Shown here: one piece after another, positions 3,646 to 26,838 of the stretch
Position numbering within the stretch: the first letter of the stretch is position 1
Layout of the letters: the number at the start of each line of letters is the position of its first letter
NCBI GenBank assembly: GCA_964423885.1
Contig: CAYRGD010000004.1
Coordinates: 8,319 to 72,318, forward strand
Length of the DNA stretch: 64,000 nt
Direction of reading: 5' to 3'
Source of the DNA: an uncultured Candidatus Saccharibacteria bacterium
GTDB taxonomy: Bacteria; Patescibacteriota; UBA1384; JACPKC01
The notes under the pieces: generated by a model
Told to the model about the DNA's origin: nothing
The model's input: only the letters and a program-made list of their open reading frames with translations
Database searches by the model: none
Translations under genes and position numbers: made by a program

Positions 3646-3675
3646 CGCGGCAGCCTATCCGGTATACTGGTGCCG

Positions 3676-6193: not shown

Positions 6194-6201
6194 CAGGTAG
6201 A

Positions 6202-7590: not shown

Positions 7591-8143
7591 GTGCGAGGAC
7601 CGTCAGCGCGACGCCGAGCGTGACGAGGAGCAGCGAGGGGCGGAGCGCTTGCACCGAGACATCCGAAAAGAGCAGGCCGTGCTGGGCGGTCGGGAAGGCG
7701 AGGCTGGCGGTCTTGACCGCCTCGGCCAAGGAACGGGCCTCGGCTTCGGATGGCCGCGAGACGGCGATCGTGGCGCTGTTGGCCTGTTCGGTCGTGACCG
7801 CGGCGAAGGTCTTGGCGAGCTCGGCGGCCGAACCGGTCGGCGCCGTCAGGCCGGCAGCGGCGAAGGTCGCCTGCACCGTGGCCGGTTCGCCCAGCCAGGC
7901 CAGGTAGTTGCTCTTCTCGCGGTTGGCCGCCAAGAGCGCGTAGTAGCTGTCATACAGATAAAAGGGCGTCGTTTCCTGTTGCAAGGGCGAGTTCGTCGCG
8001 AAGGTGGCCGTGACGACGCCTTGGTAGGTAGGCGGCAGGGCCCGGGCTGTGCCGAGGCCGAGGAGCGTGCCCGCGACGGCCGCGCCGAGCCACACGGGCG
8101 CGAAACGGCGGACGAACTGGTCGGCGTGGTCGGTAGGCTGCAT
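7526..8143 (-). CDS. Possible short Wzz-like polysaccharide co-polymerase (TM, periplasmic domain, TM)
   Basis: N- and C-terminal hydrophobic segments flank an Ala/Thr-rich domain of about 150 aa. Convergent 65-nt overlap with the preceding gene. Confidence 0.35.
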   Translation of the reverse strand: MQPTDHADQFVRRFAPVWLGAAVAGTLLGLGTARALPPTYQGVVTATFATNSPLQQETTPFYLYDSYYALLAANREKSNYLAWLGEPATVQATFAAAGLTAPTGSAAELAKTFAAVTTEQANSATIAVSRPSEAEARSLAEAVKTASLAFPTAQHGLLFSDVSVQALRPSLLLVTLGVALTVLALTFLATFALDRFAPRPAQQAD

Positions 8144-8203
8144 GATGCCAGTGTACCTGTCGGGCCCCGGTCCGTCCATCCGTTTGGTACAATCACGGCG
8201 ATC

Positions 8204-9943: not shown

Positions 9944-9944
9944 T

Positions 9945-10898: not shown

Positions 10899-12319
10899 GC
10901 CTGGCGCGCCGGATCGCCGGCAACACCGCAGTCCAGGTTGTCGGCCGCTTTGCCGTGTCGGCGGCCGCCGTCCTGACGCTCTCGCTCGTGCTGTCCGGGT
11001 TCGGCGCCAGCCTCCAGGGTAAGTACCTGCTCGCCTTGTCGTACGCGCAGTTCGTGGCGACGATCGCCGACTTCGGCCTCAACTCGTACTTGGTACGCGC
11101 CTTCTCGCTCCCAGGCAACGACCGGCAGGTCGGCCAGGTGCTGCCGTTCCGTCTTGCCTTGAGCGTCCTCTTCTTCGGCCTGGGCGCACTGGTCGTGCTA
11201 TGGCTGCCGTACGACGCCGAAGCGCGCCAGGCGGTCTGGATCGCGCTCGTCGCGACCTTCGTCCTGTCGGTGAACGCCGTGTTCGTCGCCTTCTTCCAGG
11301 CCAATCTTCGAATGGGAACCGCGGTCATGGGGGACTTCGCGAACCGGCTCGTCACGCTCGGCGGCACGTACCTGGCGCTCCACCTCGGCCTGCCCTTCCT
11401 CGCGACCCTCGGCGCCGTCTTCGCGGGCGGTGTCGTGAACCTGGCCTGGCTCATGGCAGCTGCCCGGGGCCGGCTCGCTGCCAAGGGGAGTCCCGACCTT
11501 GCCGTCTGGCGGACGCTCGCGCGCAACGCGTTCCCGATCTGGGTGACGACGATCCTGAGCCTGGTGTACTTCCGCATCGACAGCCTGCTGCTGTCCGTAC
11601 TGCCGCTCCCGGCCGGCCGGACCAACCTGACGGAGCTGTCGAACTACGGGACGGCGTACAAGTTCCTTGAGATCCTCATCGCCTTGCCGGGCATGCTGCT
11701 CGGCACGCTCATGCCGCTCCTGGTGCGGGCCGAAGCCGACAGGACGCGCTTCTCGCAGCTCATCCGCCACGCGACCTACCTGGTGTCGCTCTTCGCGGCG
11801 CCGGTGACCGTCGGGACGTTCCTGGTGGCCGACGAGCTCATCGCGACCTTCTTCCCTGCGCTCGGGCCGGCAGCCCAGGCGTTGCGTATCCTTATCTGGG
11901 CGTTCGCCGCCTCGGCCTTGGCCGCGCCGTTCATCTACGCGATCGTGAGCGCAGGCGAGCAGCGCCGGCTCATCGCCCCGAACCTTGTCATCAGTATCGC
12001 CAACGTCACGCTCAACCTGCTGCTCATTCCGCGGACCGGGTTCGTCGGTGCGGCGTGGACGACCGTCGCGTCCGAGGTGGCAGTCTTCGTGGCCGGCTGG
12101 TATGTCGCCGAGGCGCGGTTGGGGCTCGTCCGGCAGCCGTTCGATCGCCGGGTGGTCGGGCCGTGGCTGGCTGCCGCCGTGATGGGCCTGTGTGTTGCGA
12201 TCGCACCGGCGCAGCTGGCTGTCCGTGTCGGAACTGGTATCGTGGCCTACGGTATCGCCCTCGCGCTCGTCGGCGGCATCGACCGCCCGCTCTTCCGTAA
12301 GCTCCTGCCTCGCGCATGA
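10895..12319 (+). CDS. Polysaccharide flippase (Wzx/MOP superfamily)
   Basis: 474 aa with about 12-14 TM segments and the typical Wzx N-terminus (..NTAVQVVGRFAVSAAAVLTLSLV..). ATGA overlap with the upstream GT2 gene. Confidence 0.65.
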   Translation: MSLARRIAGNTAVQVVGRFAVSAAAVLTLSLVLSGFGASLQGKYLLALSYAQFVATIADFGLNSYLVRAFSLPGNDRQVGQVLPFRLALSVLFFGLGALVVLWLPYDAEARQAVWIALVATFVLSVNAVFVAFFQANLRMGTAVMGDFANRLVTLGGTYLALHLGLPFLATLGAVFAGGVVNLAWLMAAARGRLAAKGSPDLAVWRTLARNAFPIWVTTILSLVYFRIDSLLLSVLPLPAGRTNLTELSNYGTAYKFLEILIALPGMLLGTLMPLLVRAEADRTRFSQLIRHATYLVSLFAAPVTVGTFLVADELIATFFPALGPAAQALRILIWAFAASALAAPFIYAIVSAGEQRRLIAPNLVISIANVTLNLLLIPRTGFVGAAWTTVASEVAVFVAGWYVAEARLGLVRQPFDRRVVGPWLAAAVMGLCVAIAPAQLAVRVGTGIVAYGIALALVGGIDRPLFRKLLPRA

Positions 12320-13173
12320 CCCACCCCACCCTGTCGCTCGTCATCTGTACGCTCAACCGCCCGGCGATCCTGCGCCAGGCGCTTGAGGATATTTGGCAAC
12401 TCCCCACGCAGCCCGATGAACTGCTCATCGTGGATCAGACGCCGGAGCTTGATGCTGCGATGCGTGCGTTCTACGACGCCAATGCCGGCCGGCTCCGTCT
12501 GGTGCGGATGGCGCCGCAGGGGCTAGGCCAGGCGCGTAACCGGGCACTGAAGGAGGCGACGGGTGAACGTATCCTGTTCCTTGACGACGACATCCGCGTG
12601 ACGGACGACTTGGTCGCGCTCCATCGACGCCACTTCGCCGATCCGTCGGTCGGCGGCGTGGTCGGCCGGATCGACGACGCCCACGGCGACGCGCCGAGCG
12701 GCGGCGGCCGCGTCAATTGGTTCGGCCGTGTGACGGTCAACCGCGACCTCGCCTCGGTCCACGAGGTCGAGTCGTTGTCCGGGGGGAACATGTCGCTCCG
12801 GACGAAGGCGATCCGCACAGCCGGCGGGTTCTGGGAGCCCGAGGGAAACCGGGTCCAGATGCGCGAGGAAACCGACGCGAGCCTCCGGCTCCGCCGCGCC
12901 GGCTACCGGATCCTGGTCGATCCCGAAGCCAGGATCCTGCACCTGGCGGTCCGCGGCGGCGGCACCCGGACGGACGCCGACCGGCTGCGCTGGTACGAGG
13001 GGTACTTCGCGTCGGAGTTCCAGTACTTTTTCCGTAACTTCCCGGCGTGGAAACTGCCGTTCTTCCTCTGTTCACTCGCGCGGCCGATCCTGGCTTGCGC
13101 GGTCTGGTACGGCAAGCTGCGTCCGGCTGCGGTCGCGGCTCCGTGGCGGGCGCTCGCACGAGCTGCGCGATGA
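12316..13173 (+). CDS. Glycosyltransferase family 2
   Basis: LSLVICTLNRP... and ILFLDDDIRV (DxD). Overlapping start/stop with its neighbours. Confidence 0.75.
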   Translation: MTHPTLSLVICTLNRPAILRQALEDIWQLPTQPDELLIVDQTPELDAAMRAFYDANAGRLRLVRMAPQGLGQARNRALKEATGERILFLDDDIRVTDDLVALHRRHFADPSVGGVVGRIDDAHGDAPSGGGRVNWFGRVTVNRDLASVHEVESLSGGNMSLRTKAIRTAGGFWEPEGNRVQMREETDASLRLRRAGYRILVDPEARILHLAVRGGGTRTDADRLRWYEGYFASEFQYFFRNFPAWKLPFFLCSLARPILACAVWYGKLRPAAVAAPWRALARAAR

Positions 13174-13904
13174 CTGTCCGCGGCCTGACCGTCGGGATTA
13201 TCGCCCGGGACGAGGAGACGGATCTGCCCGGCCTGCTCGCCCAGCTCGGCTTCGCCGAGGCGGTAGTCGTGGTCGTGAGCGCCGAGAGCCGGGACCGGAC
13301 CGCCACGCTTGCCCGCGCTGCCGGCGCCGCCGTCCACGCGTTGCCGTTCACCGATTTTTCGGCGGCTCGGAACGCGGTGCTGGACGCCGCGCCGACCGAA
13401 TGGGTGCTGTTCCTTGACGCGGACGAGCGGCTGACGCCCGCGCTCACGGCAGCGGTTGCGCAGTTCGTAGCAGCTCCCGGCGCGGCGGCCGGGGCGCTCG
13501 TCCATCGGCAAGATGTGTTCCTCGGCCGGCGGCTGCGCCACGGCGATGCCGACGGCTGGTTCCTGCGCCTTGGGAAACGGACGGCAGGCCGATGGGTCCG
13601 GCCGGTCCATGAGACGTGGGAGCTGCCGGGCGAGACGGTCCGACTCGACGGTATCCTTGAACACCACTCGCACAAGAGCGTCGGCGAGTACCTGCGGAAA
13701 ATGGAGGCGTACACCGATCTCGAGGCCGCAACCGGCGAGCAGGCGCATTGGTGGCAGCTCGTCGCGTACCCGGCGGCCAAGTTCGTCCGCGTCTACCTGA
13801 TCCAAGGCGGGATCCTGGACGGCTGGCAGGGGCTCGTGTTCGCGGCGCTCAACGCCCGGTACTCGTTCGCGAAACGTTGGAAGCTTCTGCGGCGCCGTCC
13901 ATGA
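13170..13904 (+). CDS. Glycosyltransferase family 2 (LPS-core GT-like)
   Basis: VGIIARDEETDLPGLL... and VLFLDADERL (DxD). Confidence 0.7.
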   Translation: MTVRGLTVGIIARDEETDLPGLLAQLGFAEAVVVVVSAESRDRTATLARAAGAAVHALPFTDFSAARNAVLDAAPTEWVLFLDADERLTPALTAAVAQFVAAPGAAAGALVHRQDVFLGRRLRHGDADGWFLRLGKRTAGRWVRPVHETWELPGETVRLDGILEHHSHKSVGEYLRKMEAYTDLEAATGEQAHWWQLVAYPAAKFVRVYLIQGGILDGWQGLVFAALNARYSFAKRWKLLRRRP

Positions 13905-15418
13905 CCCAGCCGCGCCGGTTCCTGTTCCTTGCCAGCCTCGCCCTGCTTGCGGCCGGGGCGCTCTGGTCCTACTGGCCCCAACTTACCCACCGGTTCCTGG
14001 TGCCGGTCGGCGGGGACAGCGCCGCGCACGTGAGTATCGCCGAATCGATCCGGGCCGGTACCCGCACCGTGACCGAGTACGGCTACCCGCCGCTGTCACA
14101 TGCCGTCTTCGCGCTCGCGGCCCGCGCGGCCGGCGTGCCGACCGTGACCGCGTTCGCCTGGCTCACGCCCGCGTTGCTTGTATCGGTGGCGCTCGTGTGC
14201 GCCGGCGTCACGTGGCGCTGGCTCAAGTCCTGGCCCGCCGCGCTCATGGCTTTCGCGCTCATGGCCTTCGCGGCGCTCCAGCCGTTCCAGACCTGGCAAG
14301 ACGGGGGATTCCCCGACATCGTCGCCGCCTCGCTCTTCCTGCCGGCCGGGCTCTGGTTTCTGGCCGAGGCCGTCGCCGCCGAGGGCCGGGCGTGCCGGCG
14401 GCCCCTTGCCGGGTACGGGGCAGTGCTCCTACTTATCGTCGCTACCCATCACCTGACGACGCTCACGTTTGTCGGGATCAGTCTCGTATACGTCGCTGTT
14501 GCTGCAGCCGCGGCACGCCTGCACCGTCGACCGGTGCCGTTGGCCGCCCGTGTCGTCGGAGGCGGCCTTATCCTTGCCGGCCTGGCGGTCCTGTTCCTCT
14601 TCCCTGGCCAGCCCGCTCTGCAGCTGACGAAGGCCGCGCTTGTCTTCGACCGGACGTTCCCGTTCGTCCACTCGCTCATGGGGCTCGACGGCCCCGATGC
14701 GCTCCTGCCGCTCACCGCCTTGCCCGACGCGGTCGGCTTGCTTGTCTGCTGGGGCGGCGTCTTCGGGCTGGGGCTCCTGGCGTCCGACCTGCGGCAGGCC
14801 CGGGCGACCAAGCTGCTGTTTTGGGTGTGGGTGCTGACGCTGGTCGCCCTGTCGCAAGTGCCGCAACTGCGGTTTCCGGTCCGGTTCGCGCGCGAGCTCG
14901 GCGTGCCGCTCACGATCCTTGCCGCCTATGCCGGTGTCCGGCTCTGGGCCCTTGTCCGATCGCGCGAGGTGCGGCTGGCCGCACTTCTTGTGCTCACACT
15001 CCTGGCTGTCCAGGCGGTGGACGTCAAGGCGGGGAAGTTGGCCGCGCTGCCGCGCTTCGTCGAGTTCACGGCGGCGGACCGGCAGGCGGCCGACTATCTT
15101 GCCACGAAGGTGCAGCCAGGCGATTGCGTAGCGGTCGTGCCCGAGAACCGGTACTACCCGTACTTTCTGCCGGACGGGATCCGGGTGCTCGTCTACCCGC
15201 TTGACGGGACGCTGCGCCAGCGGGCCGACGCGTTGCCGGATCCGGCTGCCGCTGCGTGGTTCGCCACCTGCCCCTTCGCAGTCGCCGGGCACCGCCCAGG
15301 CGAGGCCGACTGGCCCGGCCGGTTCCAAGTGGCGGGGTTCCGCCCTGCAGCCTCGTTCGGCGACGCGGACCGGGGCGTGACGGTATTTTCGACCCAAGGT
15401 CTGCCTGGCGCCGACTAG
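13901..15418 (+). CDS. Polytopic membrane protein, possibly a GT-C-fold (ArnT/PMT-like) glycosyltransferase
   Basis: About 11 TM segments over roughly 400 aa, a GGDS acidic motif in the first extracytoplasmic loop and a soluble C-terminal domain. Confidence 0.4.
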   Translation: MTQPRRFLFLASLALLAAGALWSYWPQLTHRFLVPVGGDSAAHVSIAESIRAGTRTVTEYGYPPLSHAVFALAARAAGVPTVTAFAWLTPALLVSVALVCAGVTWRWLKSWPAALMAFALMAFAALQPFQTWQDGGFPDIVAASLFLPAGLWFLAEAVAAEGRACRRPLAGYGAVLLLIVATHHLTTLTFVGISLVYVAVAAAAARLHRRPVPLAARVVGGGLILAGLAVLFLFPGQPALQLTKAALVFDRTFPFVHSLMGLDGPDALLPLTALPDAVGLLVCWGGVFGLGLLASDLRQARATKLLFWVWVLTLVALSQVPQLRFPVRFARELGVPLTILAAYAGVRLWALVRSREVRLAALLVLTLLAVQAVDVKAGKLAALPRFVEFTAADRQAADYLATKVQPGDCVAVVPENRYYPYFLPDGIRVLVYPLDGTLRQRADALPDPAAAAWFATCPFAVAGHRPGEADWPGRFQVAGFRPAASFGDADRGVTVFSTQGLPGAD

Positions 15419-15451
15419 ACGCCACCCGGTCCGGCGGCCATACTGGCAACT

Positions 15452-16573
15452 ATGCGCCTTGTCCTTGATGCCCGCTTCTGGCGCCGCGAGACCGGCGGCA
15501 TCGGCCGGTACAGCCGCGAGCTCGTCGCGGAGCTGCTGCGCCTCGGGACCGACGACGAGTTCCACCTGGTCCTGACGCCGGCCGACGCGGCCGAATATGC
15601 GCTCGACGACCCGCGGGCGCATGCCCACGTCGTGCCGATCCCGTACTACTCGGCGGCCGAGCAGCTCCGGTTGCCCGGCGTCCTTGCTGGGTTGCGGCCC
15701 GACCTGGTCCACTTTTTGAATTTCAACCAGCCGCTCCGCTACGGCGGCCGGCGCGTGACGACGATCCATGACCTGACGGTCAAGTACTTTCCGGTCGGAC
15801 GGTCGCAGCGGAATCCGGTCCGCCGCCTGGCGCTCACCGCCACGATGCGGCGTGCCGCCCATTCCGACGGCGTGATCGCGATCTCGCGCGCCACCAAGGC
15901 CGACCTCATTCGCGACTTCAGGATCGAGCCGACCCGCGTGGCGGTCATCGGCGAGGCGGCCGACGCCCGGTTCCGCCCGCATGACACGGCCGAGCTCGCC
16001 CGGTTCCGGCGCCGCGTGGGGCTCGACGGGCCGTACATCCTGTTCGTCAACCAGTGGCGGCCGCACAAGGGCCTGCCCGATCTCGTGGCTGCCTTCGGCA
16101 CCCTCAAGCGCAGACGACATCTGCCGCACAAGCTCGTGATCACAGGCAAGCCCAATCCGCAGTTTCCCGACCTCATTGCCGCGATCGAGCGGTCGCCGCA
16201 CCGGGCTGACATCGTCCTGCCCGGGTTCGTGTCCGACGACGACCTGCCCGGCTACTACGCCGCTGCCGACGCGCTGGCGTTCCCGAGCGCCTACGAGGGC
16301 TTCGGCCTTGGTGTGCTCGAGGCGATGCAGTCGGGCACGCCCGTGGTCGTGAGCGAGGTGTCGTCGCTGCCCGAGGTTGCCGGTGACGCCGCGTTGTTCG
16401 TGCAGCCGGGCCGTCCGGACGAGTTGGCAGCGCAGCTCGGGCGGGTCATCGGCGACCCGGCGCTCGCCGCCGAGCTCGGCCGCCGGGGGATCGCCCGGGC
16501 AAGCCGGTTCAGCTGGGCGGAAACGGCCCGGCAAACATACGCGCTGTACCGGTCGGTGGCCGGACAAGACTGA
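15452..16573 (+). CDS. Glycosyltransferase family 4
   Basis: MRLVLDARF..GGIGRY N-terminus and a C-terminal GT4 E-x7-E-like region (FPSAYEGFGLGVLEAMQSGTPVV). Confidence 0.8.
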   Translation: MRLVLDARFWRRETGGIGRYSRELVAELLRLGTDDEFHLVLTPADAAEYALDDPRAHAHVVPIPYYSAAEQLRLPGVLAGLRPDLVHFLNFNQPLRYGGRRVTTIHDLTVKYFPVGRSQRNPVRRLALTATMRRAAHSDGVIAISRATKADLIRDFRIEPTRVAVIGEAADARFRPHDTAELARFRRRVGLDGPYILFVNQWRPHKGLPDLVAAFGTLKRRRHLPHKLVITGKPNPQFPDLIAAIERSPHRADIVLPGFVSDDDLPGYYAAADALAFPSAYEGFGLGVLEAMQSGTPVVVSEVSSLPEVAGDAALFVQPGRPDELAAQLGRVIGDPALAAELGRRGIARASRFSWAETARQTYALYRSVAGQD

Positions 16574-16677: not shown

Positions 16678-17055
16678 ATGGCCAACGAGACACGTATCCT
16701 TGTCGCCGAAGACGAGCCCGCGATCGCCAAGGCGCTCGAGCTGAAACTCACCCATGCCGGGTACCAGGTCGACTGGGCCGCCGACGGCGACGAAGCGCTC
16801 GCCAAACTCGACGACGGAAAATACTCCCTGCTCCTGCTCGACCTCATCATGCCGAAGAAAGACGGGTTCGGGGTACTCGAGGCGCTGCAGTCGGGCAAGC
16901 GCAAGGTGCCGGTGATCGTGCTTACGAACCTGGGCCAGGAAGAAGACCTGGAGCGGGCCAAGAAGCTGGGCGCGACCGACTACTTCGTGAAGGCGGACAC
17001 CCCGATCGCCGAGGTGGTCAGCCACGTGGAGGATAAACTCAAACATGCGGATTGA
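16678..17055 (+). CDS. Stand-alone REC-domain response regulator (CheY/PilH-like) directly upstream of pilB
   Basis: ILVAEDEP...LLLLDLIMPKKDG...VIVLTN..K receiver motifs, GGAGG SD and an 11-nt overlap with pilB. Confidence 0.8.
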   Translation: MANETRILVAEDEPAIAKALELKLTHAGYQVDWAADGDEALAKLDDGKYSLLLLDLIMPKKDGFGVLEALQSGKRKVPVIVLTNLGQEEDLERAKKLGATDYFVKADTPIAEVVSHVEDKLKHAD

Positions 17056-18694
17056 CGACGCGAAACTCCAGACGATCCTCTCGAAAGAGCACTATGTCGG
17101 CGAGGCCGACCTCGCCAAGGCGGTCGCCTTTACGCGCGAGCACAAGACGCCGCTCGCCGATTACCTGCTGACCGCCGGGCTCATTACCGACGAGCTCTTG
17201 GGCCAGGCGATCGCCGAGTCGTTCACCGTGCCGTACGCCGACCTGGCTGCCCATCCGCCGCTCCGCGACCAAGTGCTCAAGATCCCGTTCGCCGTCGCGA
17301 CCGCCCACCGGCTGATTCTGTTCGAAGACGAACCGAAGCAGGTCGTCGTCGCCACCGACGCGCCCGACAGCACGGATGCCAAGCAGGCCCTGGCCGAGGT
17401 CTTTCCTGGCCGTAAGGTCGCGTTCGCCTACGCCCTGCCCTCGGCGATCGACGAGCAGCTCGGTTTCTTCCGTAAGCCGCTCGAGACGCGGACCAGCAAG
17501 ATCATCGAGGACGGCGGCCACGTCGCCCCGGAAATCATCGACGCGATCATCGACGACGCGATCAGCCTGCGGGCAAGCGACATCCACTTCGAGCCGGAGG
17601 CTGACGAGGTGATCGTCCGGTTCCGGATCGACAGCGTGCTCCAGGAAGGCGTTCGGATCGCGCGCGAGCACTACGAGACGATCGTCAACCGCATCAAGGT
17701 CCAGGCCCGGATGCGGATCGACGAACACCACGAGGCGCAGGACGGCGCGATCCGCTACGAACAGCACGAACGGACGGTCGACCTGCGTGTCTCGGTGGTA
17801 CCGACGCTCGACGGCGAGAAGGTCGTGATGCGCGTGCTCGCCGAGTACGTCCGCAGCTTCACGCTCGCGAACCTCGGCCTGTCGGCCCGCCACCAGGCCG
17901 AGCTTACGGCCGCGGCCAAGAAGCCGTTCGGCATGGTGCTCGTCACCGGCCCGACCGGTGCCGGCAAGACGACGACGCTCTACGCGCTGCTCAAATTATT
18001 GAACCGCCCCGAGGTCAACATCACCACGATCGAGGACCCGGTCGAGTACAAGGTGCCGGGTATGAACCAGATCCAGGTCGATCCGCTCACCAACCTGACC
18101 TTCGCGAGCGGGTTGAAATCGATCCTCCGGCAGGATCCGGACATCATCCTGGTGGGCGAGGTCCGCGACGAAGAGACGAGCGAGATCGCGATCAATGCGG
18201 CACTGACCGGCCACCTGCTCTTCACGACGTTCCACGCCAACGACGCCGCGACCGCGATCCCGCGCCTGCTCGACATGCACGTCGAGCCGTACCTGCTGTC
18301 GTCGACGCTCACGGTCATCATCGCCCAGCGGCTGGTGCGGCGGATCTGCACGAACTGCCGCTACAGCCAGACCTTGAAGCTCGCACAGGTCGAAAAGGTG
18401 CTGCCGGGTGCCAAGCGGTTCTTCGACGGCACCATGGTGACGCTCTACAAGGGCAAGGGCTGCGAGGTCTGCCATGGCACCGGGTACCGTGGCCGGATCG
18501 GGATCTTCGAGTTCCTGCCAGTGACGCCACAGCTCCAAGAGCTCATCCTCACCAATCCGTCGGGCGCCGAGATCGCCCGGCTGGCCGTCAAGCAAGGAAA
18601 CCCGACGATGTTCGACGACGGCATCGAGAAGGTGCTCGCCGGTATCACGACGCTCGACGAACTGATGCGCGTCACCGCGCCGCCGGCGGCATAA
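17045..18694 (+). CDS. pilB: Type IV pilus assembly ATPase PilB (GspE family)
   Basis: N-terminal GSPII_E_N domain, Walker A GPTGAGKTTT, Asp/His boxes and a tetracysteine C-x2-C...C-x2-C. Confidence 0.9.
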   Translation: MRIDDAKLQTILSKEHYVGEADLAKAVAFTREHKTPLADYLLTAGLITDELLGQAIAESFTVPYADLAAHPPLRDQVLKIPFAVATAHRLILFEDEPKQVVVATDAPDSTDAKQALAEVFPGRKVAFAYALPSAIDEQLGFFRKPLETRTSKIIEDGGHVAPEIIDAIIDDAISLRASDIHFEPEADEVIVRFRIDSVLQEGVRIAREHYETIVNRIKVQARMRIDEHHEAQDGAIRYEQHERTVDLRVSVVPTLDGEKVVMRVLAEYVRSFTLANLGLSARHQAELTAAAKKPFGMVLVTGPTGAGKTTTLYALLKLLNRPEVNITTIEDPVEYKVPGMNQIQVDPLTNLTFASGLKSILRQDPDIILVGEVRDEETSEIAINAALTGHLLFTTFHANDAATAIPRLLDMHVEPYLLSSTLTVIIAQRLVRRICTNCRYSQTLKLAQVEKVLPGAKRFFDGTMVTLYKGKGCEVCHGTGYRGRIGIFEFLPVTPQLQELILTNPSGAEIARLAVKQGNPTMFDDGIEKVLAGITTLDELMRVTAPPAA

Positions 18695-18704: not shown

Positions 18705-20180
18705 ATGGGGCAGGCGACGACACCATCCACACTGCGCCGGACGACGAACGCGCTCGAGCTCGTCGGCATCGGGCCGGAGCGCGACCAGTTCCTTGAGAAC
18801 CTGTCGCTGCTCGTCGGATCCGGCACCGGCGTGCTCGTGGCGCTCGACAGCCTCCAGGCTGACGCCCGGTCGCATGCGATGCGCCGAATCATCGGCCGCG
18901 TGCGTGCGGACGTGGACGCCGGCCAGCCGTTGTCGAAGGCGCTCGCCGCCACCGGTTTGCTGTCGCCGCAGGTGATCTCGCTGCTCGCGATCGGCGAGTC
19001 GTCGGGCCGGCTGCCCGAGAACCTCAAGGTCGTGGCCGTCCAGCAGCAGAAAGAGCGGCTGTTCCAGTCGAAGCTGGTCTCGGCGATGATCTACCCGGCA
19101 CTCGTGTTCGGCATCACCATCCTGGTCGGGCTCATCATCGCCTGGTTCATCCTGCCGAAACTGGCATTGGTCTTTGGCCAGCTCCAGCTCGACCTGCCGG
19201 TCATGACCAAGATCCTCATCGCCGTAGGCGCGTTCCTCAACCGCTACGGGATCGTCGCCGTCCCGGCGCTCATCGCCGCCGGCGTCGTGGCGACCTACCT
19301 GTGCTTCTTCGCCGCGCCCACGCGCTGGATCGGCGAGCGGTTTATCCTGGCGATCCCCGGCCTGCGGCGCGTCGTCGTCGAGGTCGAACTCGCCCGGTTC
19401 AGTTACGTGATGGGCACCCTGCTCGAGGCCGGCCTGCCCGTACTCGACACGCTCGGGGCGATCGAGTCGGCGACGCCGTTCACGACCTACCGGCGCCTCT
19501 ACGGCCACCTGCGCCGCCAGCTGGCCGACGGCCACTCGTTCCGCAGCGCGCTCGAGTCGTACCCGAACGTCCGCCTGCTCGTCCCGATCCCGATCCAGCA
19601 GCTTATCAACGCCTCGGAGCAGTCCGGCAGCTTGGCCGGCTCGTTCCTGCGTATCAGCGCCCTGTACGAAGAGAAGACCGATATCACGACCAAGAACCTG
19701 GTCGTGGTCATCGAGCCGGTGTTGCTCGTACTGGTTTGGCTCGGCGTCATGTTCGTGGCTGTCGCCGTCATCCTGCCGATCTACCGGCTCGTGGGTGAGT
19801 TCAATACGACGGCCCTCGAACCGGCCACGTCGACGGAGCCGACCGTGACCGAGGCGGAGACGCCAGTGAGCGTACCGGTGGTAGCCAAGGCGGTACCCGA
19901 GGCGCCGGCCGACGGCCTGCCGCTGCCCGGCACCGTGTTGGGTGCACGCGATCCCGCGGCGACCGCTGCAGCCAGCCAGCCGACCGTGCTTGTGGCTGAC
20001 GGCGTGAGCTACGTCAACGTCCGCGACCGGCCGAGCGAGCACGGTGCGCTGGTCGGCCGCGCCGAGCCGGGCACGGACTACCCGGTGCTCGCAGCGGACA
20101 GCGGGTGGTACCAGATTACGTTGCCAGCAGGAGGGGTGGGGTGGGTATCCGGCCAGTTCGTCACGACCGTACAGCAGTAA
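18705..20180 (+). CDS. pilC: Type IV pilus platform protein PilC (GspF family) fused to a C-terminal SH3b-like domain
   Basis: Two GspF repeats (...IESATPF.., ..LYEEKTD..) with 3 TM segments, then a Thr/Pro/Ala linker and YVNVRDRPS..GWYQITLP..GWVSGQFV (bacterial SH3-like). Confidence 0.8.
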   Translation: MGQATTPSTLRRTTNALELVGIGPERDQFLENLSLLVGSGTGVLVALDSLQADARSHAMRRIIGRVRADVDAGQPLSKALAATGLLSPQVISLLAIGESSGRLPENLKVVAVQQQKERLFQSKLVSAMIYPALVFGITILVGLIIAWFILPKLALVFGQLQLDLPVMTKILIAVGAFLNRYGIVAVPALIAAGVVATYLCFFAAPTRWIGERFILAIPGLRRVVVEVELARFSYVMGTLLEAGLPVLDTLGAIESATPFTTYRRLYGHLRRQLADGHSFRSALESYPNVRLLVPIPIQQLINASEQSGSLAGSFLRISALYEEKTDITTKNLVVVIEPVLLVLVWLGVMFVAVAVILPIYRLVGEFNTTALEPATSTEPTVTEAETPVSVPVVAKAVPEAPADGLPLPGTVLGARDPAATAAASQPTVLVADGVSYVNVRDRPSEHGALVGRAEPGTDYPVLAADSGWYQITLPAGGVGWVSGQFVTTVQQ

Positions 20181-20620
20181 GCGGCGCCGTTGAGCACGGC
20201 TTCACGTTGCTCGAGGTGCTGCTGTCGCTTGCGCTCATGTCGGCGATCGTCGGCGTGTCCGCGCCGATCTACCAGTCGTTCCAAGTGAAGAACGACCTCG
20301 ACCTGGCCGCCAACGCGGTCGCTGCGGGGTTCCGCCGCGCCCAGATCCTGTCGCTCGCGAGCGACGGCGACAGCTCGTGGGGCGTCCATATCGCTGCCGG
20401 CTCGATCACGATCTTCAAGGGTGCGAGCTACGCTGGCCGCGACAGCGCCTACGACGAAACCACCGTCGTGCCGGGCACGATCACGCCGACCGGTCTTGGC
20501 GACGCGGTCTTCGCGCGTGTCACCGGCGCCTCGGGCGCGGCCGGGACGGTGACCCTGACCGCGAGCACCGGCCAGGTGCGCACGGTCGCGCTGTCGGCGA
20601 AAGGTACGGTGACGTACTGA
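20141..20620 (+). CDS. Pseudopilin/minor pilin with a class III (prepilin) signal. GTG start preceded by AGGAGG.
   Basis: ...EHG|FTLLEVLLSLALMSAIVGV. RBS AGGAGG at 20129-20134. Overlaps the pilC 3' end. Confidence 0.65.
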   Translation: MGIRPVRHDRTAVSGAVEHGFTLLEVLLSLALMSAIVGVSAPIYQSFQVKNDLDLAANAVAAGFRRAQILSLASDGDSSWGVHIAAGSITIFKGASYAGRDSAYDETTVVPGTITPTGLGDAVFARVTGASGAAGTVTLTASTGQVRTVALSAKGTVTY

Positions 20621-23600
20621 TGCACGTCCGGCCGACCGACAACCGGGCAGCGCACGGCCAGGGCGGCTTCTCGCTCGTCGAGGCGATGCTGTCGGCCGCG
20701 GTGTTCTCGATCGTGGTCACGAGCTTCGCCGGCGCGCTCATCGTGGGCCAGCAGTCCACGCTCGGTGCCGGTGCCCGCGCCCGGGCGATGAACCTGGCCG
20801 AAGAGGGGCTCGAGTCGGTCCGCAACATCCGCGACCAGGCGATGAACGAGCTCCAGTACGCCCAGAGCGGCGTCCAGGTGTCCGGCAACGTCTGGGGGTT
20901 CCTGGGCGAGGGTTCGACCGAAACGATTGACACGTTCACGCGCACGATCAGTTTCGGGGACGTGTGCCGCACCGGCGCGAACGTGATCGCCGCCTGCCCG
21001 GCGAGCTACACCGACCCGCACACGAAACAGGTCACCGTCGCGGTCAGCTGGCCGGTCGGGCCGGGATTGACCACCAGCTCGGTCACCCGGGTGAGCTACC
21101 TGACCGATTGGGAATCGGCCAGCTGGACGCAGACCAACTGGATCGGCGGGTCGGGACAAGTCGCCTGGTCGGCCACCGACAAATACGACAGCGCGACCGG
21201 CGTCAACGTTGGCGTCGCCGGCCAGGTGACGCTGGCTGGCATGGGCGGCGGTCTCTTTGTCGACGACGAGCAGGCCGAGTTCAACGCGGGGTCGCACAGC
21301 CAGACGCAGTACGATACCGGCAATACCTGGCTGGAGCTCACCGGTGCCGGCCAGACCGCCGGTACCGGCACGTTCACCTCGCGGATCTTCGATGCCGGCG
21401 GCACGGCGGTGTGGTCGGCGTTCGATTGGGTGCCGGTCCGGCCGACCGGCAAGGAACTGCCGAACGACGGCGCGACCGAGTCCGGCTACGCGGCCGGCAA
21501 CGTCGCCATGACGAACAACCAGTTCCTGTACCACCTGAACCAGAACTCGGGCGCCACGAGCTTCACGGACAACTCCGGCAACGGCCGCACTGCCACCTGT
21601 GCCGGCGGCCAGTGTCCCACGGCGGGCGTGGCCGGCAACCAAGGGAATGCGGTCACGTTCGACGGCACGAACGACCGCTTGACGAGCCCGGTCAACCTGG
21701 CGACCTACCTGGGCGGTACCTCGTCGTTGAGCGTCTGGATCAAAACCACCCAGACCGGCAACGCCACCTTCTGGGAAGCCCCGGGTATCACCGGTGTCGA
21801 GAGCAACGGGAACGGGAACGACATTTTCTGGGGTTGGATCAGTAACACCGGCCGGATCGGGTTCAACGTCGGTGACGGGGGCGGGCTCTTGAGCGCCAAT
21901 CCGATCAACAACAACCAGTGGCACCACGTGCTCATGACCAGGAACGCTACCACCGGCGCGATCGCGCTCTACGTCGACGGTGTCGCGCAGACCGGCACGA
22001 GCGACACCGGCGCGAAGACGACCGCCTTCACGACGATCGGGATGGTCGATGATACGGGCGGCACCCCGACGTTCTACGCCGGCTCGATGGACGAACTCGC
22101 CGTCTGGAACCGCGTACTCAGTCCCACCGAGGCGGCCGATATCTACCGCCGGGGCGCGCTCAACCTCACCTTCCAAGTCCGCTCCTGCGACGACGCGGCC
22201 TGCGCGGGCGAGTCGTTCATGGGGCCGGACGGCACCGGCAGTACGGTGTATTCGGAGATCGCGAACGCTACGCTGAATCCGCCGGCCACAACGGTGACGA
22301 ACGTTGCCAATAACCGGTACATGCAGTACCGCGCCGTACTGACGACGCTGAACGCCTCGCTCTCGCCGGAAGTGACCAAGGTCTCGCTGCCGCATATCGG
22401 GCTGCTCATCGACGATACGCAGGCGGAGTTCAATACGGGAACCTATACTGCCACCCAGTACGATACCGGCAACAGCTGGCTGGAGCTCACAGCTGGCGGC
22501 CAGAGTGCCGGTACCGGCACCTATGCCTCGGAAGTCTTCGACATCGGCGGTGCTGCCGCCTGGTCGACATTCGGCTGGCTGCCGCAGCGGCCGACAGGAA
22601 AGGAGTTGCCGGGCGCCGGTGGTATGGAAACGGGGTATACGACCGGGAATATGGCTATGACCGGCAACGTGCTCCTCGCGCATCTCAACGAGGCGTCGGG
22701 TACCACCTTCGCGGACAGCTCCGGCACCGGCAACAACGGCACCTGCACCGGCGTCGGCTGCCCCACATACGGCTCGGCAGGGAAGTTGGCCCAGGCGATC
22801 ACCGCAAACGGCACGAACGACGAGATAGTGGTGCCGGACGCGGCATCGCTCGATATCGCCGACGACCTCACGGTGATGGGGTGGTTCAACGCGACCGGCG
22901 CCGGTACCGCGCTCGGCGACATCGGGAACGCCACGATCGACTCGCTCGAGTTCGACACCGCCGACGGCCAGACGCCGGATATCCTGCAGGTGTCCGGCGA
23001 CGTCTACGTGGTCGCGTACACCGGTCCGGGGCAGGACGGCTGGCTGGCAACCTTCACGATCGACAGTTTCGGCAACGTGGGCAACGCCGTCATTGACACG
23101 CTCGAGTTCGATACCGCGGACGGCCGCTCGCCGTCGATCGTGCACGTCTCGGGCAACATCTACGCCGTGGCGTACGACGGCGTCGACAACGACGGCTGGG
23201 TGAAGACCTTCTCGATCACGCCGGCCGGCGATATCAGCAACGCCACGATCGATTCACTGGAATTCAATACCACGAACGGTCTGACGCCGCACCTGGTCCA
23301 TGTCTCCGGCACCGCCTACGCCGTCGCGTACACCGGGCCGGACGGCGACGGCTGGGTGACGTCCTTCACGATCAGTGCTGCCGGCGACATCAGCAACAGC
23401 ACGGTCGATTCCTTGGAGTTCGATACCGCCGACGGGTTGCGGCCGTATCTCTTTCCGGTCTCGGGCAACATCTACGCCGTGGCGTACACCGGGCCTGCGG
23501 GGGACGGGTTCCTCAAATCATTCACCGTTAGCGGCACCGGCGACATCGGGAACAGCGTGATCGATACGCTCGAATTCGACACCGCCGACGGCCAGGCACC

Positions 23601-24927
23601 ATCCGTGGTCCACGTATCCGGGAACGTCTTCGCGGTCGCCTATCGCGGGCCGGGCGACGACGGTTGGGTGAAGACGGTGACCATTAGCGGCACCGGCGAT
23701 ATCGGGAACGCCACCGTCTCTTCCTTCGAGTTCGATGCGTCGAACGGCCTGGCACCGCAGATCGCGCACGTCCACGGCAATGTCTACGCTGTCGCGTATA
23801 CCGGCCCAGGCAACGACGGATGGTCGGCCACCTTCACGATCAGTCCGGCGGGCACGATCGGTGGCGCGACCATCGACACGTTCGAGTGGAACACCAGCGA
23901 CGGCGTCGAGGCGTCGCTCATCCACGTCAATCGGGATATCTGGGCCGTCGCCTACCAGGGCCCGGCCGGCGACGGCTTCGTGACCACCTTCGACATCGCG
24001 AGCAACCGCGGCGTCTCGAAGAGCGGTGCCTACGGCCTGTCTTCGACCACCACGACCGCGACAGGTATTATCAACGGCGTGACGGTATCGAGCGCCATCA
24101 CCAGCGGATGGCACCACTTGGCACTCACCTACGACAACGATCTCGGCTCGAACCAAATCCGACTGTTCGTCGACGGCACCCAGACGGCGACGGCAACCCT
24201 GACCGCCGACATCAATCTCAATGATTGGGACGCGGTGCTCGGGAGCCAGTTCGCCGGCGCACTCGACGAGGTGGCGGTGTTCAGCCGGATGCTGTCGGCC
24301 ACGGAGGTGAACGATGCTTGGCGCCGCGGGGCGCTCCGGGCCAATTACCAAGTCCGCTCCTGCGACGACGCGGCCTGCGCGGGCGAGTCGTTCATGGGGC
24401 CGGACGGCACCGGCAGTACGGTGTACTCGGAGCTCATGAATACCGGCCTGACGCCGCCGAGCGCACTCCCGCTCACGAACGTCGCCGATAACCAGTACTT
24501 TCAATACCGAGTCGTACTTGAGACCGACGCCGCGGCTATTTCCCCGGAGATCCGATCGGTGACCATCCAGCACGGCGCGGGCGGCGGCAGCGGATACCAG
24601 GTAGCGGGGTCGCTGCTGTCGTCGGCGTATAATATGGGCGACGCCTCGCCGGTCGAAATCATCGAATGGGACCAGCAGGCTGCAAGCTGCAGTCCGGCCT
24701 GTTCGATCCGGTTCCAGTTGCGGACAGCGCCGGACAACGCCGGTTCGCCCGGCACGTGGACGGGCTGGTACGGCGCGACCGGTCCCGGCACCTACTTCAC
24801 GGCTGCGACCGGTACACGGGTCCCTGTGGCCTTGAACGGCAACCAGTGGGTGCAGTACCGCGTCGAGCTCGCCGGGGACGGTACCGACACCCCGACACTC
24901 GACGAAGTCCGCGTATACTACCGGTAA
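20620..24927 (+). CDS. Giant prepilin-anchored adhesin-like pseudopilin (1435 aa): two LamG/ConA-like modules plus 7 tandem propeller-like repeats of about 52 aa
   Basis: MHVRPTDNRAAHGQG|FSLVEAMLSAAVF prepilin N-terminus. A unit of about 370 aa is duplicated. 7 repeats of ..LEFDTADG..VSGN.YAVAYTGPG.DGW..TFTIS..G.IGNA.. Confidence 0.75.
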   Translation: MHVRPTDNRAAHGQGGFSLVEAMLSAAVFSIVVTSFAGALIVGQQSTLGAGARARAMNLAEEGLESVRNIRDQAMNELQYAQSGVQVSGNVWGFLGEGSTETIDTFTRTISFGDVCRTGANVIAACPASYTDPHTKQVTVAVSWPVGPGLTTSSVTRVSYLTDWESASWTQTNWIGGSGQVAWSATDKYDSATGVNVGVAGQVTLAGMGGGLFVDDEQAEFNAGSHSQTQYDTGNTWLELTGAGQTAGTGTFTSRIFDAGGTAVWSAFDWVPVRPTGKELPNDGATESGYAAGNVAMTNNQFLYHLNQNSGATSFTDNSGNGRTATCAGGQCPTAGVAGNQGNAVTFDGTNDRLTSPVNLATYLGGTSSLSVWIKTTQTGNATFWEAPGITGVESNGNGNDIFWGWISNTGRIGFNVGDGGGLLSANPINNNQWHHVLMTRNATTGAIALYVDGVAQTGTSDTGAKTTAFTTIGMVDDTGGTPTFYAGSMDELAVWNRVLSPTEAADIYRRGALNLTFQVRSCDDAACAGESFMGPDGTGSTVYSEIANATLNPPATTVTNVANNRYMQYRAVLTTLNASLSPEVTKVSLPHIGLLIDDTQAEFNTGTYTATQYDTGNSWLELTAGGQSAGTGTYASEVFDIGGAAAWSTFGWLPQRPTGKELPGAGGMETGYTTGNMAMTGNVLLAHLNEASGTTFADSSGTGNNGTCTGVGCPTYGSAGKLAQAITANGTNDEIVVPDAASLDIADDLTVMGWFNATGAGTALGDIGNATIDSLEFDTADGQTPDILQVSGDVYVVAYTGPGQDGWLATFTIDSFGNVGNAVIDTLEFDTADGRSPSIVHVSGNIYAVAYDGVDNDGWVKTFSITPAGDISNATIDSLEFNTTNGLTPHLVHVSGTAYAVAYTGPDGDGWVTSFTISAAGDISNSTVDSLEFDTADGLRPYLFPVSGNIYAVAYTGPAGDGFLKSFTVSGTGDIGNSVIDTLEFDTADGQAPSVVHVSGNVFAVAYRGPGDDGWVKTVTISGTGDIGNATVSSFEFDASNGLAPQIAHVHGNVYAVAYTGPGNDGWSATFTISPAGTIGGATIDTFEWNTSDGVEASLIHVNRDIWAVAYQGPAGDGFVTTFDIASNRGVSKSGAYGLSSTTTTATGIINGVTVSSAITSGWHHLALTYDNDLGSNQIRLFVDGTQTATATLTADINLNDWDAVLGSQFAGALDEVAVFSRMLSATEVNDAWRRGALRANYQVRSCDDAACAGESFMGPDGTGSTVYSELMNTGLTPPSALPLTNVADNQYFQYRVVLETDAAAISPEIRSVTIQHGAGGGSGYQVAGSLLSSAYNMGDASPVEIIEWDQQAASCSPACSIRFQLRTAPDNAGSPGTWTGWYGATGPGTYFTAATGTRVPVALNGNQWVQYRVELAGDGTDTPTLDEVRVYYR
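22173..22250 (+). repeat. 78-bp perfect direct repeat, copy 1 of 2 (copy 2 at 24348..24425)
   Basis: Identical 78 nt encode ..QVRSCDDAACAGESFMGPDGTGSTVY.. in both LamG-like modules. Confidence 0.85.
22918..24010 (+). repeat. Seven tandem coding repeats of about 156 bp (52 aa) each. They are divergent at the DNA level and conserved at the protein level.
   Basis: Repeats read directly from the translation: IDSLEFDTADGQTPDILQVSGDVYVVAYTGPGQDGWLATFTIDSFGNVGNAV and six more. Confidence 0.7.
24348..24425 (+). repeat. 78-bp perfect direct repeat, copy 2 of 2
   Basis: Identical to 22173..22250; about 2.2 kb apart within the same gene. Confidence 0.85.
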
Positions 24928-24931: not shown

Positions 24932-25465
24932 ATGCCGCTGCTGCCTCACCCTGCCCGTCGTGCCGCCCGCTCCCGCGGCTTCACGCTGGTCGAGCTCCTG
25001 CTCTACCTGGCGATCACGTCGATCATCATCACGAGCGTCTCCGGGTTCCTGATCACCATGCTGCAGGCCCGGGCCAAGTTCCAGACGATCAGCGAGGTCG
25101 AGGCGCAGGGCCAGCAGGCGATGCAGGCGATCACCCAGACGATCCGGAACGGCACGGCGATCACGAGCCCCGGCACGGGTACCTCGGCGGCCGCGCTCAC
25201 GATCACGGTCCCGACCGGCCCCTTGAGTCCGACCGTCTTCGACCTGTCGGGCGGCATCGTCCGCGTCAAGGAGGGCACGGGCGCGGTCCAGAACCTGACG
25301 ACCAGCCGGGTGACGGTGTCGGGCCTTGCGTTCGACAACCTGACCCGGGCCACCACCCAGGGGACGGTCCGGATCACGTTCACGGTCACGAGCGTCAACA
25401 CGAGCGGCCGGAACGAGTTCAGCTACGCCAAGACCTTCCGCGATACTGCCACCTTCCGCCAATGA
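24932..25465 (+). CDS. Pseudopilin/minor pilin (prepilin-type N-terminus)
   Basis: ...SRG|FTLVELLLYLAITSIIITSV class III signal. Confidence 0.7.
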   Translation: MPLLPHPARRAARSRGFTLVELLLYLAITSIIITSVSGFLITMLQARAKFQTISEVEAQGQQAMQAITQTIRNGTAITSPGTGTSAAALTITVPTGPLSPTVFDLSGGIVRVKEGTGAVQNLTTSRVTVSGLAFDNLTRATTQGTVRITFTVTSVNTSGRNEFSYAKTFRDTATFRQ

Positions 25466-25866
25466 CCCGCCGCACCGACCCTGCCGCCGGCTACGTCACC
25501 TTGCTTACGGTGTTGGTCGTGAGCGCCGTCGGCGTCGCGATCACGAGCTCGCTGCTCCTCCTGGGGCTCGGTAACGCCCGTTCGGGCCTGGCGCTCCAGC
25601 AGGCGAAAAACGCGGCTGCGCTCGCCGACGCCTGTGCCGAGGAGGCGCTCCAGCAGATGCGTTTCTCGCCGGCGTACTCGGGGACGGCCACCCTGTCGCT
25701 CGGCGCCGGCAGCTGCACGTACACGGTCACCGTGGGCGTGGGCGAGGCCCGCGAGGTGCGCTCGACCGGCACGGTCGGCTCGGTCGTCCGCAAGGTCATC
25801 GTTGCCGTGAGCGCGCTCACCCCGAAGACGGTCGTCGCCTCGTGGCAGGAAGTGGCGTCGTTCTAG
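25462..25866 (+). CDS. PilX-like minor pilin / pilus assembly protein
   Basis: N-terminal hydrophobic helix (GYVTLLTVLVVSAVGVAITSSLLLL), small Ala/Thr-rich domain and an ATGA overlap with the upstream pseudopilin. Confidence 0.5.
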   Translation: MTRRTDPAAGYVTLLTVLVVSAVGVAITSSLLLLGLGNARSGLALQQAKNAAALADACAEEALQQMRFSPAYSGTATLSLGAGSCTYTVTVGVGEAREVRSTGTVGSVVRKVIVAVSALTPKTVVASWQEVASF

Positions 25867-25931
25867 CTATCCACTAGCCAAGCGGCCTATCGATAGGCAC
25901 TATGAATGAAACAAGTACAAGGAGGGTTGCA

Positions 25932-26372
25932 ATGCATGAGCAGCGGCGCGGGTTCACGTTACTCGAAATTCTCTTGGTCGTCGGCGCGATCAGCATCCTG
26001 GCCGCCATCGTGATCGTGGCCCTGAACCCCACGAAGCAGCTCGCCGATACCCGCAACGCCCAGCGCCGGGTCGACGTGAATACGATCCTCAATGGCATCT
26101 ATCAGTACGCGATCGACCACAACGGCTCGCTGCCGGCAGCCATCACCACCAGCGCGACCGGGATCTGCCGGACCGATGGCGTGGACTGCAGCACGCTCAT
26201 CGACCTGCCGGAACTGACCACCAACGGCACCTACTTGGTGGCGATCCCACGCGACCCGACGGCTGCGGACGCGGACACCACCGGCTACACCGTCCTCAAG
26301 AACGTGAACAACCGGGTTACCGTGAGCGCCCCGTCCGCCGAGAGCGGCGCCACGATCAGCGTCACCCGCTAG
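25932..26372 (+). CDS. Type IV (major) pilin, GspG/PulG-like; tandem copy 1
   Basis: MHEQRRG|FTLLEILLVVGAISILAAIV, then ..ADTRNAQRRVDVNTILNGIYQYAIDHNGSLP.. AAGGAGG SD upstream. Confidence 0.8.
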   Translation: MHEQRRGFTLLEILLVVGAISILAAIVIVALNPTKQLADTRNAQRRVDVNTILNGIYQYAIDHNGSLPAAITTSATGICRTDGVDCSTLIDLPELTTNGTYLVAIPRDPTAADADTTGYTVLKNVNNRVTVSAPSAESGATISVTR

Positions 26373-26394: not shown

Positions 26395-26838
26395 ATGAAC
26401 CAGCACCGGTCGAAGCGCGGCTTCACCCTCTTGGAAATCCTGCTCGTCGTCGGCGCGATCGCCATCATCGCCGGCATCGTGATCCTCGCGATCAACCCGA
26501 GCAAGCAGCTCGCCGATACCCGTAACGCCCAGCGCCGGGTCGACGTGAACACGATCTTGAACGGCATCTACCAGTACGCGATCGACAACAACGGCGCCCT
26601 GCCGGCGACGATCACCGTCACCTCGACGCCGATCTGTAACACCGGCGGCACCTGCACCGGGCTCATCGACTTAGGCGTCCTGACGGCAAGCGGCACCTAC
26701 CTTGTCTCGATCCCGAAGGATCCGACCGGCGCCACGGTCAACAGCACGGCCTACAACGTGAGCAAGAACGCCAATGGCCGCGTGACCGTCAATGCCCCGT
26801 CCGCCGAGAGCAGCGCGACGATTTCGGTGACCCGCTAA
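26395..26838 (+). CDS. Type IV (major) pilin, tandem paralog; copy 2
   Basis: MNQHRSKRG|FTLLEILLVVGAIAIIAGIV. Largely identical in sequence to copy 1. Confidence 0.8.
   Translation: MNQHRSKRGFTLLEILLVVGAIAIIAGIVILAINPSKQLADTRNAQRRVDVNTILNGIYQYAIDNNGALPATITVTSTPICNTGGTCTGLIDLGVLTASGTYLVSIPKDPTGATVNSTAYNVSKNANGRVTVNAPSAESSATISVTR

Follow-up and report, generated by a model that had tools for sequence, protein, structure and literature searches.

A perfect 78-nucleotide repeat at the most conserved motif of a giant minor pilin gene in an uncultured Candidatus Saccharibacteria bacterium: a probable case of short-tract gene conversion

RESULTS

A giant minor pilin gene containing a repeated tract

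This analysis concerns a pair of perfect direct repeats within a single gene of an uncultured Candidatus Saccharibacteria bacterium, a giant pilin gene lying on contig CAYRGD010000004.1 of GenBank assembly GCA_964423885.1. The stretch of DNA analyzed, which we call the window, comprises 64 000 nucleotides (nt) of this contig (positions 8319 to 72 318 of the forward strand), and all coordinates given here are those of the window. The original prediction, made from the sequence alone, had drawn attention to the repeat and offered recent gene conversion or constraint on the encoded peptide as its origin. The gene and its principal features, with amino acids (aa) numbered along the protein, are as follows.

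20620..24927, + strand: coding sequence of the giant minor pilin, 1435 aa, identical to database protein P0001
20659..20721, + strand: prepilin-type N-terminal methylation motif and hydrophobic helix, GFSLVEAMLSAAVFSIVV..., aa 14-34
21256..22404, + strand: module 1, a beta-sandwich with the inserted LamG/ConA-like lectin domain 1 (Pfam, aa 348-504, nt 21661-22131)
22173..22250, + strand: repeat copy 1, 78 nt perfect and 84/85 to 22257; encodes (F)QVRSCDDAACAGESFMGPDGTGSTVY, pilin aa 518-544, at the exit of LamG domain 1
22405..24591, + strand: module 2, a paralogous beta-sandwich and LamG domain 2, the latter holding the propeller insertion
22914..24005, + strand: propeller of seven 156-nt (52-aa) repeats, with 55-72% nt identity between blades
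24348..24425, + strand: repeat copy 2, the same 78 nt and 84/85 to 24432; aa 1243-1269, at the exit of LamG domain 2
24592..24927, + strand: C-terminal domain of ~110 aa, conserved, with 57-76% aa identity in nine of the homologues compared and 31% in P0015

The longest open reading frame (ORF) begins with a GTG at 20377; the ATG at 20620 abuts the stop codon of the upstream gene, and agrees with P0001. At the N terminus there is a class III signal of the form G↓F-x-x-x-E followed by a hydrophobic helix, read from the sequence as GQGG↓FSLVEAMLSAAVFSIVVTSF (GQGG↓FSLVE). The Pfam N_methyl model scores 18.8 bits here, under its cut-off of 21.2 bits, and the match to PilV is weak. The N-terminal 210 aa are 48-74% identical in most of the homologues compared, and 33% identical in two. 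The prepilin-type N terminus, the pilus operon context described below and homologues named prepilin or PilV by their sources all bear out the description of the gene as a giant pilin, and judged on these features the 1435-aa protein is a predicted type IV minor pilin. Long antisense ORFs are present (e.g. 20449-23145 on the - strand, 898 aa, opposite the pilin gene, and many others), but these are artefacts of high GC content and not genes.

In the protein a pilin domain at the N terminus is followed by two paralogous modules, and these by a conserved domain at the C terminus. Module 1 is modelled by AlphaFold2 with a predicted local distance difference test score (pLDDT) of 91 and a predicted template-modelling score (pTM) of 0.89, as a beta-sandwich carrying a LamG/ConA-like insert. 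Foldseek relates this module to the lectin-type jelly rolls of the trans-sialidase lectin domain, clostridial toxin Hc-N and CBM40. In module 2 the propeller array that had been proposed to lie between the repeats is found as seven repeats of 156 nt, as seven four-stranded blades in the AlphaFold2 model (pLDDT about 90-95) and as a match to seven-bladed lectins using Foldseek. The best structural matches are the fucose-binding PHL/PLL lectins of Photorhabdus (PDB 6flu, 5mxg, 8q82, 6rgg), with a target template-modelling score of 0.70-0.77 and an E-value of 1e-13, and in the model the intervening propeller is thus predicted to be a seven-bladed fold of the PLL/PHL type. The likeness is one of fold, sequence identity being only 12-16%, and whereas PHL and PLL are free lectins the pilin propeller has been inserted into another domain. 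There are consequently three levels of nesting at 22405-24591, with a PLL/PHL-like propeller in a LamG domain that is itself in a beta-sandwich. Among the 21 pairs of blades the longest perfect run is 30 nt, between blades 2 and 4 (23070-23225 and 23382-23537), which are 62% identical overall, and no identical run above 30 nt is found among the tandem blades.

The repeat is a sharp-edged block in diverged surroundings

The perfect 78-nt repeat was confirmed by direct reading and by a pattern search of the window, which returns exactly two copies of the 78-mer with up to three mismatches permitted; none is expected on the basis of 100 shuffles. It is bounded by mismatches at 22172 (T versus A) and 22251 (T versus C). 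Six matches follow the latter, and the extended match of 84 out of 85 nt (22173-22257 versus 24348-24432) is also as originally reported. The copies are separated by 2175 nt, corresponding to 725 codons, and both are in frame within the same coding sequence.

Outside the tract the two modules are well diverged, as had been claimed, with 63% identity of nucleotides and 53% of amino acids over 273 aligned codons. The edges of the tract are sharp, and the aligned codons flanking it on each side mostly differ. After the 78 nt of the repeat itself, the longest identical runs between the modules are 17, 15 and 14 nt. When the 900 aligned sites were permuted 20 000 times the longest run averaged 14.6 nt with a maximum of 37 nt, and 78 nt was reached in none. 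Thus a near-perfect block (78/78) lies within paralogous flanks that are far more diverged (63%).

A recent segmental duplication was rejected as the source of this block. Divergence sets in directly at either edge of the block, and a distant homologue has the same arrangement of two modules. The homologue is P0002, from a locus of 44% GC, in which module 1 with its LamG domain is followed by module 2 with a LamG domain and propeller. Since so distant a homologue has the same layout, the duplication that generated the two modules is ancient.

The tract encodes the most conserved motif of the family

The peptide specified by the tract is (F/Y)QVRSCDDAACAGESFMGPDGTGSTVY, which in the AlphaFold2 model corresponds to the end of the strand returning from the LamG domain into the sandwich, followed by a long Cys-x4-Cys loop, the two cysteines of which are invariant in the family. 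The original prediction had proposed a comparison of orthologues for the same peptide, and this shows that the peptide is conserved across the family; indeed it is the most conserved motif therein, QVRSC[DN]D..C.GE.F.GPDGT..TYY.E. The motif is present in about 25 database homologues. In the 11 closest full-length homologues the R, C, D, C, G, E, G, P, G and T of the motif are invariant, and the motif dominates the invariant columns of the alignment. It recurs a further 96 times in the other loci fetched, nearly all from a scan of genome contigs comprising 79 loci.

Such conservation might suggest that the peptide itself has imposed the identity of the DNA, with purifying selection and the codon bias of a 66% GC genome generating the perfect repeat by chance. 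The invariance of 10 residues in the 11 homologues and the 96 further copies of the motif speak for this, as does the GC bias at third codon positions, which raises codon matching between the modules to 56%. The codons within the tract do not fit such an origin. All 24 degenerate codons inside the tract are identical, whereas in the flanks this is true of 78 out of the 140 codons that specify identical residues (56%). Moreover, codons that are rare in the usage of this locus are common to both copies: CAA (9%), AGT (4%), TCC (12%) and GGG (18%). Given the same peptide and the codon usage of the locus itself, the probability that all 25 codons agree is 9e-8. There is therefore synonymous identity beyond that due to codon bias.

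How similar do two copies of the motif become under constraint alone? For a comparative null we took 23 pairs of motifs, each in the same locus and on the same strand, from 18 other loci. In these control pairs the nucleotide identity of the motif is 59-87% and the longest identical run is 7-27 nt, while over wider windows of 360 nt around the motif the identity is 42-62%. One locus, L038, has three copies of the motif on one strand (starting at 6894, 11844 and 16850), and includes a pair encoding identical 30-aa peptides. These are only 79% identical in nucleotide sequence with a maximum run of 8 nt, and thus provide a natural control for constraint in the absence of conversion. Since constraint alone gives no more than this in the controls, perfect DNA identity requires gene conversion. 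The control pairs and the codon probability effectively refute an origin in peptide constraint alone, to which we assign a negligible likelihood. Of the two origins originally put forward, recent gene conversion and constraint on the peptide, both are real; what does not stand is their presentation as alternatives, and the 23 control pairs show that constraint by itself is insufficient. Neither do they give any sign of recurrent conversion in the family, 27 nt being the longest run in these 23 other pairs.

Both copies share states that are absent from relatives

Syntenic homologues are found in other Patescibacteria, at loci L002, L003 and L017 and on the short contig L001. The operon synteny is repeated in L002 and L003, and in L017 for the pilin genes. 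L017 is the closest relative found, with a DnaB protein that is 96% identical and synteny at about 75% nucleotide identity. Judged by the relatives of its DnaB, the organism itself belongs to Patescibacteria, close to Berkelbacteria. The giant pilin of L017 (980-4408) is a one-module protein of 1047 aa; its pilin domain at the N terminus and its last 110 aa are conserved, at 73-76% amino acid identity, but the middle has been replaced. Natural one-module relatives are P0011, P0006-8, P0003 and P0012. Across the pilin family the modules, propellers and other inserts are shuffled, even between close relatives, and the adhesin core is therefore hypervariable.

L017 encodes ...ESFAGPDGTGSTYYTE, and agrees with the tract at 67 out of 84 nt. 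The high-GC relatives L001 and L017 (65% GC) differ from the tract at synonymous sites, a further argument against constraint and base composition as a sufficient cause, and at the synonymous sites where L017 differs both window copies carry one common codon. Two amino acid replacements are particularly informative. A methionine is encoded by ATG in both window copies, where L017 and L001 have alanine (GCC or GCG). Similarly, both copies have a valine encoded by GTG, where the relatives have tyrosine (TAC). Valine is found at this position of the motif in none of the 96 other copies, of which 75 have tyrosine and 10 phenylalanine. Thus within the tract, and only there, the paralogues are closer to each other than to their orthologues, and they share derived states.

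The same comparison bears on the suggestion that the 78 nt is a functional element at the nucleotide level that is required twice, such as an mRNA structure, a protein-binding site, a recombinase target or the template and variable repeats of a diversity-generating retroelement (DGR). The predicted fold of the 78-mer has z = -2.2, with 6 of 200 shuffled sequences folding as well, and Patescibacteria carry DGRs. However, the nucleotides at synonymous sites are not conserved in the relatives, and Rfam has no match at the tract, its matches in the window being three tRNAs elsewhere. A DGR is further opposed by the perfection of the pair, by the single nearby mismatch being T/C and not adenine-specific, and by the tract corresponding to that part of the protein which varies least. 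Among about 40 ORFs scanned there was no reverse transcriptase, integrase, invertase or other recombinase, although the scan was not exhaustive. We consider a nucleotide-level element very unlikely. An RNA element was rejected on the unremarkable z score and the silence of Rfam, and a DGR or site-specific recombination on the perfect pair, the conserved peptide and the lack of a reverse transcriptase or recombinase among those ORFs.

The identity might also have been generated in assembly or polishing, if a consensus or multi-mapped reads had homogenized the two copies, or if the assembler had followed a shared k-mer path into a chimeric join. The sequence comes from a metagenome-assembled contig of 93 161 nt, and an exact repeat of 78 nt exceeds many assembly k-mers, so that the original warning of an assembly hazard is reasonable and assemblies of the locus warrant caution. 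Against an artefact, the reading frame and domain order are intact across both copies, and homologues from independent assemblies have the two-motif layout with similar spacing. The inter-motif distance is 721 codons in P0004, 714 in P0005 and 916 in P0002, and the agreement of frame, domain order and spacing with these independent assemblies makes a chimeric join unlikely. De Bruijn assemblers do not homogenize sequences that are differently flanked, and the methionine and valine codons, being unique in the family, must be real in at least one copy. We therefore regard an artefact as an improbable source of the repeat.

Probable gene conversion between the modules

Lineage-unique codons with multiple nucleotide changes, identical in two ancient paralogues and confined to a sharp-edged block, are a sequence signature of gene conversion. 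The 78-nt repeat is most probably the footprint of a single, recent and lineage-specific intragenic conversion between the ancient modules, with a short tract of about 78-90 nt; we put the probability of this at roughly 0.8. The event may be placed well after the split from L017, since there are zero differences between the copies at 24 degenerate codons compared with 17 out of 84 nt differing from L017.

A plausible course of events can be outlined. Purifying selection would have kept the motif as the most similar stretch of DNA between the modules. RecA-mediated homologous pairing, or template switching in replication, could then have begun at the conserved motif, which is the most likely starting point because it is there that the modules stay most alike. 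Repair of the heteroduplex, or copy synthesis, would have homogenized about 80 nt, with the strongly diverged flanks halting the heteroduplex or copied segment on both sides at about 80-90 nt. The same event would have carried the changes of alanine to methionine and tyrosine to valine into both modules. Within the tract L017 is equally distant from both copies, and so favours neither as the donor.

Some considerations weigh against this account or qualify it. The identity is that of the assembled sequence, from which one or a few genuine differences may have been lost in polishing. The metagenome and genome-contig scans revealed neither a relative at strain level nor an allele from before the conversion. 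There is no RecA in the 64-kb window, which is uninformative at that span. Finally, selection for the methionine and valine variant in both modules may have helped to fix the event; this would add to conversion without replacing it.

The repeat as a potential substrate for recombination

The suggestion that the repeat creates a recombination substrate holds on paper. The minimal efficient processing segment is 23-27 bp for RecBC and 44-90 bp for RecF (as quoted in PMC12074656); a repeat of 78 nt exceeds the former and falls within the range of the latter, and the resulting deletion would be in frame. From the computed geometry, crossover or slippage between the copies would remove 725 codons in frame to leave a one-module pilin of 710 aa. 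The deleted part would comprise the C-terminal part of module 1, the N-terminal part of module 2, LamG domain 2 and the propeller. The product would retain the pilin domain, the N-terminal part of the sandwich, LamG domain 1, the motif, the C-terminal part of the module 2 sandwich and the C-terminal domain, and the breakpoints fall at equivalent structural positions in both modules. The predicted deletion junction is ...GCGCTCAACCTCACCTT-[78-mer]-CTCGGAGCTCATGAATACC..., and that of the duplication ...GCGCTCCGGGCCAATTA-[78-mer]-TTCGGAGATCGCGAACGCT....

This raises the possibility that the repeat is a maintained switch, in which selection keeps the copies identical, and in-frame deletion and re-expansion toggle the adhesin between a form with two lectin modules and the propeller and a form with one module. 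The pilus tip would then vary in size or phase, and this would be additional to conversion instead of taking its place. The exact frame of the deletion, its position at equivalent domain boundaries and the resulting 710-aa product are in keeping with such a role, as are the natural one-module relatives and the shuffling of modules between close relatives. There is an experimental precedent in Salmonella Typhimurium, where direct repeats of 113 bp lying 2.5 kb apart mediate loss of the wzy locus (PMC12074656). The two cases have in common perfect direct repeats of about 100 bp, a separation of about 2.2-2.5 kb and a determinant of surface structure that would be lost. They differ in that the pilin repeats are coding and the predicted product is an in-frame chimeric protein, not loss of a gene, and here the comparison is of geometry alone.

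Against a maintained switch, a clone cannot easily undo a deletion, and a single conversion event suffices to explain the data. No variant was seen among the public contigs scanned, which held no close relatives: the metagenome contigs of the Joint Genome Institute (JGI) gave no match to a back-translated ESFMGPDGTGSTVY pattern, and a protein scan of the same contigs for close relatives returned only relatives at ≤37% identity. Furthermore, because none of the 23 other motif pairs keeps a long identity, the family does not conserve such a switch. We therefore think a maintained switch quite unlikely. The same low odds attach to its mechanistic form, in which RecA-dependent or slippage-mediated crossover would act as a pilus-tip adhesin switch of an episymbiotic Patescibacterium, dropping LamG domain 2 and the fucose-lectin-like propeller in frame. 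Were it nonetheless true, there should be a subpopulation with a one-module adhesin and altered glycan or host specificity, and recurrent short conversions at the motif would re-create recombination substrates and drive the shuffling of modules in the family.

The pilus operon and the wider window

The giant pilin is embedded in a set of genes for pilus machinery and further pilins, all encoded on the same strand.

17045-18694, + strand: PilB-like T2SSE ATPase, upstream pilus machinery
18705-20180, + strand: PilC-like T2SSF platform protein with a C-terminal SH3 domain, upstream pilus machinery
20105..20620, + strand: small pseudopilin or minor pilin (N_methyl), directly upstream; the true start is probably downstream of 20105
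24932-25465, + strand: minor pilin, downstream of the giant pilin
25462-25866, + strand: small protein, downstream of the giant pilin
25902-26372 and 26395-26838, + strand: two tandem major-pilin paralogues, downstream of the giant pilin

Thus T2SSE, T2SSF, three further N_methyl ORFs and a second major-pilin paralogue are all adjacent. The fusion of the PilC-like T2SSF protein (18705-20180) with a C-terminal SH3_3 domain recurs in the homologous locus L002 at 115-1527. The tandem major pilins contain a similar block of their own. The sequences at 26034-26117 and 26503-26586 are >90% identical, with perfect runs of 20, 26 and 15 nt, and encode KQLADTRNAQRRVDVNTILNGIYQYAID, while the C-terminal halves of the two genes have no ungapped alignment register. 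This may be a second block of conversion or constraint within the operon.

The wider window is one of chromosomal housekeeping genes, including those for DnaX, DnaB, UvrD, MetRS, LigA and GatA. Just upstream of the pilus operon, at 2605-16573, is a polysaccharide or glycosylation cluster with GT1, GT2 and GT4 glycosyltransferases, a Wzy_C O-antigen ligase-like protein and a Polysacc_synt flippase, and this could relate to glycosylation of the pilin or the cell surface. A cluster of tRNA genes at 2321-2581 comprises Ser(gct), Arg(gcg) and Arg(ccg), the two arginine genes being 85% identical to each other. The GC content dips at 46001-48000 (0.55) and 56001-58000 (0.58), compared with about 0.66. 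The ORFs located there at 47145-47795 (- strand), 47995-48642 (+ strand) and 56901-58316 (+ strand) have no Pfam hit, and these regions may be acquired DNA.

DISCUSSION

The process that we propose for the pilin repeat is in itself ordinary and well known. What is new is this instance, in a predicted adhesin. Ectopic gene conversion has been described in surface genes of Mycobacterium tuberculosis, in the pairs pe_pgrs27/28 and ppe18/19 (PMC12046097). The pilin tract resembles these as a non-reciprocal, exactly matching tract within diverged paralogues, in proteins of the surface or of host interaction, and in the manner of its detection, as two exact hits where the relatives have one state. 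It differs from them in that the donor and recipient are modules of one gene and the tract is only about 80 nt in length. Moreover, it is where the protein is most conserved, and not in a variable region, that the tract is found, and its flanks are far more diverged (about 63% identity) than is typical of conversion partners.

Gene conversion in type IV pilin genes is familiar from the pilE/pilS system of Neisseria, where silent donor cassettes and a G4-forming initiator serve to diversify the variable regions of the major pilin. In the present case, by contrast, a conserved motif of a minor pilin has been homogenized, and there are neither silent cassettes nor any sign of a programmed process.

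What might the protein do? In Nanosynbacter lyticus TM7x the lectin-like minor pilins PilX1, a beta-jelly-roll, and PilX2, a seven-bladed beta-propeller, have been proposed to be tip adhesins for host binding, and PilY1 of Pseudomonas belongs with them among the closest known systems (PMC11623550). The protein studied here is likewise a large minor pilin with lectin domains encoded in a Patescibacteria operon, and combines a jelly roll (LamG) with a propeller, the likeness being one of domain type. Unlike PilX1 and PilX2 its domains are nested and duplicated within one protein of 1435 aa, known from sequence and models. By analogy with these pilins, the giant minor pilin probably acts as a tip adhesin.

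The repeat provides a clean and well-controlled case of how a diverged intragenic duplication can undergo very short gene conversion seeded at its most conserved motif. Because it is the conserved motif that would have seeded the conversion, conversion and constraint are here causally linked. A practical consequence is that the ratio of non-synonymous to synonymous substitution (dN/dS) and the phylogeny of the modules will be distorted at the tract. If the repeat were also used for in-frame loss of a module, it would provide a mechanism for heterogeneity of host range in episymbionts, though this is speculative. The lectin-bearing giant minor pilins of Patescibacteria thus appear as a fast-shuffling family of candidate host-recognition adhesins.

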